33,080 nt of DNA from a virus (Duplodnaviria > Heunggongvirae > Uroviricota > Caudoviricetes): the IMG/VR virus record IMGVR_UViG_2896601577_000002. The stretch is one strand, 5' to 3'. The notes below the pieces were generated by a model that was not told where the DNA came from, ran no database searches, and was given only the letters and a program-made list of their open reading frames with translations. The stretch's first letter is position 1, and each line of letters opens with the position of its first letter. Position numbers and translations under genes: made by a program. This document shows, one piece after another, positions 10,157 through 12,045 of this stretch.

Positions 10157-10384
10157 ATGACCCTTTATGAAATATTAAAAATTCAATTTAAAACCAATGC
10201 CGCTATTGGTCGCAGGTTCCCAAAGAAAGGAAGGCCTCGTGGCAGTCAAGGTGTTGGAAAGTGGAAAACGCGAGGTGTTCCGGAGGATGTTGCCATTCTT
10301 TGTCATCTGGATCCGAGCATTCCATATACACACCCAAGGCTAGCGAATACAGAAGATGACAAGCCCACAGGAGACCAACAATGA
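10157..10384 (+). CDS. hypothetical protein in the cro position (75 aa, basic GRPRG stretch)
   Basis: Only plus-strand ORF between PR and the next gene; weak SD; no recognisable Cro HTH. Confidence 0.3.
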   Translation: MTLYEILKIQFKTNAAIGRRFPKKGRPRGSQGVGKWKTRGVPEDVAILCHLDPSIPYTHPRLANTEDDKPTGDQQ

Positions 10385-11088
10385 ACACCGCAATTTTTAA
10401 CGGCAAAGCATCCATGACCAGCGTTGAGATCGCAGAGCTGGTGGGAAGCCGACCAGATAGTGTTAAGAGAACTATTGAAACACTGGCTAAAAAGGGAATC
10501 ATCCAATTTCCACAGACTGTGGAAATTGAGAATAAACAATCACTTGGGCCTCGCCGATTTTCTAGCGCGTATGTATTCGAAGGTGAACGAGGTAAGCGCG
10601 ACAGCATCATTGTCGTCGCACAGCTCTGTCCTGAATTCACAGCTCGCCTGGTAGATCGCTGGCGCGAACTGGAAGAACAGATCCGTAAGCCAATGAGCGA
10701 AATCGAAATGGTTGCCGCGATGGCTCTTGAAGCCGTTCGCCAACAGAAACGGATCACTCAGGTGGAAGAAAAAGTCAGCCACGTTGCTGAAACAGTCGAG
10801 CAAATTAAAAAGGGCACTATTCGTGAGGGCTATGCCGGATATCGCCAACTGAAAGCAAAAACCGGTTTGTCAGATGATAAATGCCGCAATCTGGTGAACG
10901 CCTATCAAATTCCTACAGACACCCATGAGTTCATGACGCCGGACAGATTGTTGTCACGTCGCGCAATTGTTGCTGTGGAACCGTTTATGGCTGCTTTTTA
11001 TCGGGTTATGGAGGAAGCAGAACCGCGAGGGACTCGCTGGTATCACCCGAAAATGGGGTTATTTCAGGTTATTGGTTGGCAGCGGTGA
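10381..11088 (+). CDS. phage regulatory protein, Rha/antirepressor-like
   Basis: N-terminal segment TSVEIAELVGSRPDSVKRTIETL resembles the Rha/Bro-N fold; AGGAG SD. Confidence 0.6.
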   Translation: MNTAIFNGKASMTSVEIAELVGSRPDSVKRTIETLAKKGIIQFPQTVEIENKQSLGPRRFSSAYVFEGERGKRDSIIVVAQLCPEFTARLVDRWRELEEQIRKPMSEIEMVAAMALEAVRQQKRITQVEEKVSHVAETVEQIKKGTIREGYAGYRQLKAKTGLSDDKCRNLVNAYQIPTDTHEFMTPDRLLSRRAIVAVEPFMAAFYRVMEEAEPRGTRWYHPKMGLFQVIGWQR

Positions 11089-11111
11089 AAAAAAGCCGGG
11101 AGTAACCCGGC
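11088..11111 (-). terminator. hairpin GCCGGG-AGTAA-CCCGGC with a U-tract only on the minus strand
   Basis: A7 precedes the hairpin on the plus strand, so it reads as an intrinsic terminator for leftward transcription. Confidence 0.4.
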
Positions 11112-11307
11112 TCACTCAACATCAATAACGGGGAGCTGTTTCGCATAAAACGGCTCCGAAACATCCAAGAACAGTTCTAAAGATATCAGCAGCTATATGA
11201 TCATTTCAAGACCAAATATTGATTCTGCAATTTCGGGACGTTACACTGTCTCCGCACCTTATAAAGCGGGTGCCGGGATTGGCGTCCTGAAATTCGCACA
11301 TGCGCAT

Positions 11308-11330
11308 AACCGCGCTTCAGCGGTTTTTTT
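11308..11330 (+). terminator. putative tR1-like intrinsic terminator inside the PR operon
   Basis: Stem AACCGC/GCGGTT followed by T7. Confidence 0.4.
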
Positions 11331-11493
11331 GCGCACGTTTCCTCACATCCAAATTATGGTGGGGCGTGCAGGGGCATCGAAAGATGCGCCGGGGTCATGT
11401 GCGACCGGTTACGCCAACCCTGTACGTCTCACCACCTCTGTGATTGGCGTCCCATGTGGTGAGTTTTCAAAATTCGCACATGAGGATGTCACT

Positions 11494-12045
11494 ATGGCAA
11501 CCACCCCTACCCAAACTCACCCTAAAATTGATGTTATCCATGGGAAGGCTGTTACCTCTTCTTTGGCCGTTGCCGAATATTTCTGCAAGCAGCACAAAAA
11601 CGTTATTCAAAAAATCCAGACGCTTGAGTGCTCTGTTGAATTCACTGAGCTGAATTTTCAGCCCAGTGATTACACCGATTGCACAGGCCGCAAACTACCT
11701 TGCTATCAAATCACCCGCGATGGCTTCGCGTTCCTTGCTATGGGCTTTACTGGCAAACGTGCAGCCCGGTTCAAAGAGGCATACATCAACGCCTTTAACC
11801 AGATGGAGAAGAATTTATCTGGTGCTGACGCGGTTGATATGTCAGCTGTCGCACGAAACGCCAGAGGCGTATACCTGCATTTGCGTGAAATCCATCAAAT
11901 CTGGACAAGCCAGCTTTATCCAATGCTTAAGGCCGTTGAATCTCCGCTGGCTAGCAAACTGTACGACCGTGTTGGTGATGCTGTTTTTGGCGCTGCACTT
12001 GTTGATTCCAGGCTGAATGGTTCTGACAAGGAGGTTCGCCCATGA
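11494..12045 (+). CDS. phage regulatory protein Rha family
   Basis: Motif AVAEYFCKQHKNVIQKIQTL...DGFAFLAMGFTGKRAARFKEAYINAFNQME; SD AGGA; the ORF track's upstream extension is not used. Confidence 0.7.
   Translation: MATTPTQTHPKIDVIHGKAVTSSLAVAEYFCKQHKNVIQKIQTLECSVEFTELNFQPSDYTDCTGRKLPCYQITRDGFAFLAMGFTGKRAARFKEAYINAFNQMEKNLSGADAVDMSAVARNARGVYLHLREIHQIWTSQLYPMLKAVESPLASKLYDRVGDAVFGAALVDSRLNGSDKEVRP

Follow-up and report, generated by a model that had tools for sequence, protein, structure and literature searches.

A probable P4/P1-type RNA immunity cassette within the 5' region of a Rha-family gene in a lambdoid Escherichia coli prophage

The DNA analysed here (IMG/VR record IMGVR_UViG_2896601577_000002; 33,080 nucleotides, hereafter the window) comes from a lambdoid Escherichia coli prophage, and the region of interest, positions 10157-12045, begins with the first gene of its rightward operon. 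With a probability of roughly 0.85, this region carries an RNA immunity cassette of the P4/P1 type, with an isrK/seqA-type RNA, a C4/CI-type RNA and a2b2/seqC target sites in this order, the cassette occupying the 5' portion of a Rha-family gene and the prophage having in addition a switch composed of an S24-type CI repressor and a Cro-like protein. The membership of the module in the antisense-RNA family of P4, P1 and Gifsy-1 is nearly certain, and the regulatory details proposed below have somewhat better than even chances of being correct. The 2-kb region is 99.7% identical to DNA of E. coli strains CE10 and AR_0013, where the RNA genes are unannotated in both cases. A match to it was found in about 1,376 of 5,426 complete genomes, with up to 5 matching places per genome.

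A first-pass annotation of the region had described a 75-amino-acid (aa) open reading frame (ORF), two Rha-like genes and, between these, a structured spacer of 400 bp containing a T7-tailed hairpin, an oppositely oriented terminator and a pair of 13-mer repeats. All of these elements are present in the sequence. The spacer separates the gene of a Roi/Rha-like DNA-binding protein (235 aa; 10381-11088, plus strand) from the gene of a Rha-domain protein (183 aa; 11494-12045, plus strand) and measures 405 bp (11089-11493). A terminator scan gave a plus-strand hairpin with a stem at 11308-11325 and a T-run to 11330, and a minus-strand terminator at 11093-11113 with a T-run at 11088-11094. What had been overlooked is a second exact repeat, the complements of both repeats lying between their copies, and a long ORF (282 aa; 11197-12045, plus strand) that runs in frame with the Rha gene through both RNA genes, the 183-aa Rha-domain gene being a nested short form.

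The window was scanned against Rfam at the gathering thresholds, and a laxer scan was added. The small RNA isrK (RF01394, seqA type) was recognised at 11254-11330 of the plus strand, over 77 nt, and reaches 62.3 bits (gathering score 50). It consists of a 5' hairpin, a second hairpin with the a1 segment in its loop, the b1 segment and a terminator at 11308-11330, so that the T7-tailed hairpin noticed earlier is the isrK terminator. The C4/CI-type antisense RNA (RF01695) was found at 11352-11439 of the plus strand with 75.1 bits (gathering score 45, E-value 4e-13, model positions 1-87 of 87); judging by the annotated ends of P1 c4, the mature C4 RNA is predicted to extend over 11358-11436. C4 RNAs are cut out of a longer transcript by RNase P, which makes the 5' end, and by further processing. 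The laxer scan also gave a match to c4-a1b1 (RF03163) at 11241-11293, with 23.9 bits and below the gathering score of 46.7. All three matches, including the sub-threshold one, agree with expectation in strand and order.

The 13-mer AAATTCGCACATG has exactly two copies in the 33-kb window, at 11290-11302 and 11470-11482, as the first-pass annotation had stated; we calculate that a stretch of 405 nt would contain about 0.001 exact 13-mer repeats by chance. The second exact repeat, GATTGGCGTCC, occurs at 11277-11287 and 11442-11452. Between the copies lie the reverse complements TCATGTGCGA (11395-11404) and ACGCCAACCC (11411-11420). The 13-mer copies are the sites named b1 and b2 in P1, and the second repeat represents a1 and a2. 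The a1 core (TTGGCGT, 11279-11285) is located in the loop of the second isrK hairpin, and the pairing core of b1 is formed by 11294-11302. In the C4 RNA, b' (TCATGTGCGA) constitutes the loop of the second hairpin, and a' (ACGCCAA, 11411-11417) is part of the single-stranded junction. Downstream of C4, the a2 site (the second copy of GATTGGCGTCC, plus strand) contains a 7-nt complement of a', and the b2 site, which together with the Shine-Dalgarno (SD) sequence GAGGA (11482-11486) occupies 11470-11486 of the plus strand, pairs with b' over 11474-11483, a perfect complement of 10 nt. The b pairings are perfect over 9-10 nt and the a pairings over 7 nt, and they connect C4 with sites of its own strand on either side, a1/b1 upstream and a2/b2 downstream. 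The SD sequence precedes the Rha ATG at 11494. The earlier statement that the second 13-mer overlaps this SD holds in part: the copy abuts the ribosome-binding site (RBS) and ends on the first G of GAGGA, the overlap being 1-2 nt and not the whole SD.

The predicted stability of these contacts depends on the match of the partners. The cognate b'-b2 duplex of the window has -16.1 kcal/mol, compared to -4.0 to -9.3 kcal/mol for the window b' on non-cognate b2 sites, and cognate duplexes are on average 6-8 kcal/mol more stable than non-cognate ones. In the consensus fold of the read-through transcript obtained with RNAalifold, the segment GTGGTGAG (11456-11463, plus strand) alternatively pairs with the 3' strand of C4, CTCACCAC (11428-11435); its core GTGGTG is invariant in 34 of 34 sequences, and the end pair changes from C-G to U-A in 6 of them. 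A further hairpin, formed between a2 and b2 and sequestering the SD, was considered as a conserved element and dropped: it appears in the minimum-energy fold of the window and was not recovered in the consensus fold.

Exact repeats 180 bp apart that flank a structured region beside genes of DNA-binding proteins can also be read as DNA operators for CI, Cro or Rha/Roi, the spacer then being a protein-controlled promoter region. Such operators would not require that the complements of the repeats be placed in the loop and junction of a high-scoring C4 RNA, where they are found, and the likely operators of CI and Cro are another sequence, TTGATACTTTGG, on either side of cI. The comparison of relatives bears on this question directly.

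Relatives of the Rha protein were collected from 80 IMG/VR loci and from the phage records of Gifsy-1, ST64B, SfV, ZX5, 1717 and a Yersinia phage. From these, 42 distinct upstream sequences were extracted, and pairs were counted on a 34-sequence alignment made with MAFFT (alignment A2). Conservation extends to the promoter-like site, the 5' hairpin of isrK and the C4 stems. The a and b segments vary strongly from module to module. The C4 stems are 99.8-100% paired over the 34 modules, with compensatory changes. The a/b segments change together at all three places, the b variants reading, for instance, TCAATATAG / CTATGTTGA / TCAACATAG and TGTCAACGG / CCGTTGACG / TGTCAACGG. The a types include TTGGCGT, GTGGAAA, GTGAGAA and a fourth, TCGCAG, accompanied by a' CTGCGA. 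At least eight b types and at least four a types occur in combinations.

The b'-b2 helix is paired in 95.5% of the alignment cells, with 8 of its 10 pairs changed on both sides; the corresponding values are 96% and 7 of 9 for the b'-b1 helix, and 100% and 5 of 7 for the a'-a1 helix. Slid controls gave 33-49% paired cells. For both structures, none of 500 shuffles reached the observed percentage of pairing, the number of cells changed on both sides or the covariation score; in the case of the a1b1/a'b' structure, the pair-count and pair-type measures were reached by 94 and 118 of the 500 shuffles. The a'-a2 pairs were left out of the formal tally, since the MAFFT alignment places the a2 segments of different a types one register apart, and alignment-free matching revealed that a1, a' and a2 change together in four variants. 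The cis helix a1b1:b'a' was independently predicted by RNAalifold.

Several b1-b' positions are kept as G-U pairs. On the other strand these would be A-C mismatches, and they are meaningless for a DNA site. This indicates an interaction at the RNA level, on the plus strand, and excludes DNA operators for these positions. Given that repeat and loop also change together in relatives, we consider the operator explanation as a whole to be scarcely credible. The repeats turn out to be hypervariable among relatives and yet co-vary with the C4 loops; judging from the sequence comparison, they are functional as specificity determinants, not as conserved sequences.

The candidate internal sigma-70 promoter, TTGATT-17-TACACT, is located at 11219-11247 of the plus strand, with a putative start site near 11254. 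It scores 8/12, below the cut-off of the scanner, and was read directly from the sequence. It is kept in all 42 distinct upstream sequences, and its position is that of P1c4 (P51b) in P1, PLE in P4 and PisrK in Gifsy-1.

The 282-aa ORF starts 22 nt upstream of the -35 hexamer of this promoter. The frame of the AUG at C4 (11356) is open in the window clade and in phase with the Rha ATG, the two being 138 or 141 nt apart. Neither of the other two frames is open in the clade, and the modules in alignment A2 differ by indels that are multiples of 3. Nearly all relatives of the clade have an in-frame ATG or GTG 156-162 nt ahead of the C4 AUG, corresponding to 11197 in the window, and many of these starts are preceded by a GGAGG SD or overlap the upstream gene in an ATGA.

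PGAP and several phage records annotate the long ORF, and it might be an ordinary 'Ash'-Rha fusion gene in which the RNA matches are incidental. The open frame, the conserved start and a match of Pfam PF10554 (Phage_ASH) to residues 16-110 agree with this. However, these residues are the translation of the promoter, isrK, C4 and a2b2 stretch. The variable columns of this RNA part are distributed over the three codon positions as 46/49/47 of 80, without codon periodicity, unlike the Rha part, where the third position is strongly variable (43/38/106 of 184 columns). An ordinary gene would also leave unexplained two Rfam families above the gathering score with compensatory covariation, and a conserved promoter and terminator inside the 'gene'. 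Moreover, the homologous regions of the distant modules (Gifsy-1, ZX5, 1717 and YpM39) are closed in that frame and have short upstream ORFs instead, and P4 offers a precedent for the coexistence of coding and RNA roles. An ordinary fusion gene is, in our estimation, very improbable. As the ASH match covers an RNA stretch without codon periodicity, the Ash family seems largely to model the RNA module kept open in one frame. A conventional protein domain in the 5' part of the long ORF was considered and is not claimed, the periodicity test being negative. We read the arrangement as one in which the passage of ribosomes matters and the peptide sequence does not, which fits the logic of P4 eta and kil.

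The immunity region of P4 is similar to the cassette in several respects. P4 gives isrK and C4 matches of 60.8 and 74.9 bits, with the order and strand seen in the window, and its isrK/C4 (seqA/CI) elements are contained in a 214-aa ORF. This ORF begins ahead of the internal promoter, and Kil makes up its last 65 aa. The nested layout recurs in the window, where the short form starts after seqC/b2 (11494), and is kept in the clade. The long ORF aligns with the P4 ORF (E-value 2e-4) from residue 54, at the C4 AUG, to residue 110, just past the Rha start, and the start regions resemble each other (MATTLTPSHPE in P4 Kil, MATTPTQTHPK in the window Rha protein). The a type GTGAGAA and the SD-start sequence of P4 recur in lambdoid relatives of the window. 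Unlike in P4, the cargo is a 183-aa Rha-domain protein and not the 65-aa Kil, and the host element is a lambdoid prophage with CI and Cro, in which immunity would not depend on the RNA alone, the RNA adding a second layer. The distance between the terminator and CI is about 90 nt greater in P4, the two elements have different a/b specificities, and the Rho-dependent timm site of P4 was not identified in the window. As described in PMC10111431, a constitutive promoter lies inside P4 eta, and its transcript is terminated via the pairing of CI and seqA and processed to CI; the same source presents Kil as a truncated form, full-length Eta as produced only from the upstream promoter, and the translation of Eta as preventing termination.

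The order annotated in the GenBank record of P1 (promoter P1c4 (P51b), a1, b1, c4, a2, b2, icd) is matched by the window, and the spacing is also close: the distance from the end of the -10 hexamer to a1 is 32 nt in both, that from the end of b2 to the ATG 11 nt, a1-b1 14-15 nt and a2-b2 29-30 nt. The C4 fold is the same, with 68.8 bits in P1 against 75.1 bits here, and an isrK-like element with a terminator is present in P1 as well, though weak (35 bits). As in the immI region of P1, b2 overlaps the SD of the next ORF; by sequence, the downstream gene here belongs to the Rha family and would be an antirepressor gene by family only. The window differs in that it contains no icd-like small ORF, the ORF after b2 being the 183-aa Rha gene itself, and in that no C1-type operator overlaps its promoter region. 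The long nested ORF is a feature of P4, and Ant1/2 of P1 belong to another protein family. For P1, the C4 RNA is stated in PMC8198154, citing Citron and Schuster 1990, to be needed for full icd/ant repression.

The RNA module of Gifsy-1 is homologous and was aligned throughout A2, with the same promoter position, the a type TTGGCGT and a C4-like element after isrK. In Gifsy-1, orf45 starts at the AUG located at the 5' end of the C4 stem (AUUAUGGUGGGG). The cis pairing of the middle part of IsrK with the orf45 region ('structure A') is recovered in the consensus fold, and the alternative C4 partner likewise has its counterpart in Gifsy-1. In the Gifsy-1 isrK-orf45(STnc1160)-anrP locus, the short IsrK switches on orf45-anrP translation through a shift between alternative structures, with a processed RNA located downstream (Hershko-Shalev et al. 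2016, PMC4825925). Gifsy-1 differs from the window in that its module follows the late antiterminator gene Q, whereas the window module is found in the early right operon, with roi on one side and the replication genes on the other, and in that orf45 is a separate 45-aa ORF with a stop codon overlapping the anrP start, whereas the corresponding AUG of the window is in frame with Rha, with no stop between. An orthology between the Rha gene and anrP was dropped, no similarity to Gifsy-1 AnrP being found. The RNA motifs as such appear in Weinberg et al. 2010 (PMC2864571) and in Rfam, and lambdoid copies were noted earlier (PMC3632133).

The protein encoded by the nested gene is a well-supported member of the Rha family (Phage_pRha 113 bits, TIGR02681 115 bits). 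The 235-aa protein upstream matches Phage_pRha with 25.6 bits, below the cut-off of 29.9, as well as HTH_Crp_2 and PHROG 63 'anti-repressor Ant' (E-value 1.4e-45); it is annotated as Roi in PhiR49_2 and as a 'Rha family transcriptional regulator' in RefSeq (PGAP). PHROGs places the Rha family among antirepressors and regulators.

The following mechanism, whose steps we infer from P1, P4 and Gifsy-1, may be proposed. In the lysogen, CI would repress the rightward promoter (PR), and the internal promoter alone would fire. Most of its transcripts would end at 11330 as the short isrK-type RNA. The read-through RNA may either fold a1b1 onto b'a' in cis or be processed to free C4, which would pair with a2/b2, block the entry of ribosomes at the Rha start and probably terminate transcripts before the replication genes. 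In this way the antirepressor-like Rha protein and promoter-driven downstream expression would be kept off. The short isrK RNA would compete for b'a' and could then act as an activator. After CI cleavage, the transcripts from PR would pass the leftward terminator and carry the 11197 start. Ribosomes from this start would translate through the RNA elements and prevent the pairings, so that the long form would be made regardless of C4. The a/b segments would represent exchangeable specificity determinants, that is, heteroimmunity types.

Several points weigh against this interpretation. The promoter, the RNA processing, the direction of regulation and the use of the 11197 start are all matters that we infer. 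The model systems themselves differ in outcome, translation being blocked in P1, transcription terminated in P4 and the short RNA acting as an activator in Gifsy-1. In the window, b' reaches only the first 2 nt of the SD, and the ATG at 11197 has no visible SD (ATATCAGCAGCTAT), unlike many of the relatives. The missing codon periodicity of the RNA part means that its peptide is not under ordinary protein selection. The antirepressor role of the 183-aa Rha protein is a guess at the level of the family. AnrP of Gifsy-1 is unrelated to the Rha protein, and the RNA module is therefore one that has been combined with different cargo genes.

The 3' end of roi, the terminator and the adjoining spacer (11061-11225) were compared with loci L004-L079 and are 98.8-100% identical in loci with entirely different a/b cassettes. 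Near-identical flanks around differing cassettes suggest cassette exchange by recombination at the conserved stems. Tandem arrays with two or three isrK-C4-Rha modules per contig, mostly of different a/b specificities, were also observed. The loci L042 and L043 have modules at about 1857, 2716 and 3564, and L024, L030, L038, L058 and L069 are tandem as well.

It may be asked whether the cassette acts mainly in trans, on phages, prophages or P4-like satellites of the same a/b type, as an exclusion or anti-satellite device, and not on its own Rha gene. The numerous combinations of a and b types within flanks at least 98.8% identical, the loci with two or three modules, the up to 5 places per genome that match the 2-kb region, and the a type GTGAGAA and start region that P4 shares with some lambdoid modules are all compatible with this idea, and an anti-satellite function was raised in PMC3632133. 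However, the gene downstream of each module has the cognate a2/b2 of that module directly on its SD, an arrangement that speaks for control in cis as the primary function, and no trans target was found elsewhere in the 33-kb window. A mainly trans-acting device appears improbable to us. Control of the own Rha gene remains the preferred reading, and it leaves room for a broader conjecture, which we put forward as speculative and consider unlikely to hold in full: the immunity-RNA cassette in the lambdoid clade may be a hypervariable, exchangeable 'barcode' placed in frame in the Rha gene, yielding repressing RNAs from the internal promoter and an immunity-insensitive long protein from PR, with the a/b types forming a cross-immunity network of the prophages and P4-like satellites in one cell.

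The rightward operon begins with the gene of the 75-aa protein (10157-10384, plus strand), divergent from the cI-like repressor gene (9389-10045, minus strand). It had been proposed that the region has no recognisable Cro and that the 75-aa protein lacks an obvious helix-turn-helix (HTH) motif. As regards sequence profiles, the latter is correct. No meaningful match was found in Pfam (also for 32 homologues at E-values up to 10), NCBIfam or PDB sequence profiles, and PHROGs gave phrog_4749 alone, of unknown function. The predicted structure, on the other hand, is Cro-like, and the first claim has to be abandoned. The AlphaFold model, built on an alignment of the protein with 31 homologues, is confident and all-alpha, its predicted local distance difference test (pLDDT) score being 87.8 for the whole model and exceeding 94 in residues 1-60; the model has the five helices of the Cro/repressor fold, and the Foldseek search placed Cro proteins on top, with weak E-values. 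The protein is Cro-like, the link to Cro coming from the predicted structure alone.

With the all-alpha Cro proteins (P22 Cro 1rzs, N15 Cro 2hin and Xfaso1 Cro 3bd1), the 75-aa protein shares the position of its gene, the first rightward one and divergent from the repressor. It differs from them in having an identity of only 10-17%, no hidden Markov model (HMM) matches and an invariant basic loop, FPKKGRPRG, of about 9 residues between helices 2 and 3, where the usual turn has 3-4 residues. From λ Cro it differs by the absence of the mixed alpha/beta fold. There are 42 close homologues in Enterobacterales; 24 columns are invariant among 31 of them and the window protein, and the loop residues P22, G25 and R28 are conserved. 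In all seven homologue loci of Klebsiella and Providencia, the gene is the first one, is divergent from a repressor with HTH_3 and Peptidase_S24 domains, and precedes replication genes. These loci (Klebsiella L093-L097, Providencia L098-L099) have the same Cro-like gene and S24 repressor without the roi-RNA-Rha block, and lead almost straight to the replication genes. As the block is missing from such prophages, it behaves as an insertable module.

An exact 12-mer, TTGATACTTTGG, flanks cI at 9353-9364 and 10092-10103, and an inverted 9-mer, CAAAGTATC, is located at 10131-10139, 28 nt to the right of the second copy. On the basis of sequence and position, these are candidate half-sites of the left and right operators (OL/OR) for CI and the Cro-like protein.

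Compared to the cro-cII-OOP region of λ, the cassette has the same position in the genome, between the repressor and the replication genes, and the leftward terminator ending the second gene recalls OOP. The absence of CII suggested by the first-pass annotation was confirmed in the sense that no CII-like gene was recognised in the rightward operon, where ORFs of 64, 74 and 99 aa have no Pfam match and are assigned by PHROGs to unknown function or replication initiation. The sole 'CII-like' PHROG match is a leftward 167-aa HTH_3 gene (8783-9286, minus strand; E-value 1e-40), the first gene to the left of cI, which also has a weak DicA match. Unlike in λ, no OOP-like RNA was detected by Rfam, and the RNA control of the window is predicted to act on a Rha-family gene via kissing-type loop contacts. 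The suggestion of a regulatory switch different from that of λ is thus partly upheld. The spacer does appear to hold a switch acting on the Rha gene, with functional repeats, but it is a known IsrK/C4 module, present in Rfam, and it is added to the CI/Cro switch and does not replace it.

The leftward intrinsic terminator (11088-11113, minus strand), with an 8-pair stem (6 G-C) followed by T7, directly follows the stop codon of the roi-like gene. As it has no plus-strand T-run, rightward transcripts should pass it. A weak minus-strand promoter match (9/12) was noticed at 11209..11180, about 80 nt to the right of this terminator, and no Rfam match was found on the minus strand near 11088-11113. 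An OOP-like leftward small RNA ending at 11093-11113 was considered and not retained, its support being the 9/12 promoter match, with no Rfam match.

RefSeq and most phage records list only the 282-aa ORF, as 'Rha family' or 'hypothetical', and no RNA genes; orf37 of SfV is annotated as 'immunity region'. Recognising the cassette gives a widespread type of E. coli prophage a probable second, RNA-based immunity layer. This kind of system has been known since 1990 in P1, since 1995-1999 in P4 and since 2016 in Gifsy-1, and the current understanding of these systems is unchanged. The particularities of the present case are the Rha cargo, the upstream ORF fused in frame and the representation of one allele of a combinatorial specificity set. 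In addition, a divergent member with a basic loop in the HTH turn is added to the set of all-alpha Cro proteins on which the evolution of folds is studied.

Other features of the window were recorded outside the immunity region. An IS-like pair of transposase-like ORFs (90 aa and 301 aa; 6892-8161) lies to its left. A tRNA cluster (Met-CAT, Arg-TCG, Arg-TCT) is located at 20203-20451 and is followed by a full-length match to the small RNA STnc100 (20527-20716, 126.9 bits). Two identical IS3-family copies (22338-22637 and 27853-28152) are 5,515 bp apart, and each has an ALIL frameshift pseudoknot, at 22673-22789 and 28188-28304, respectively.

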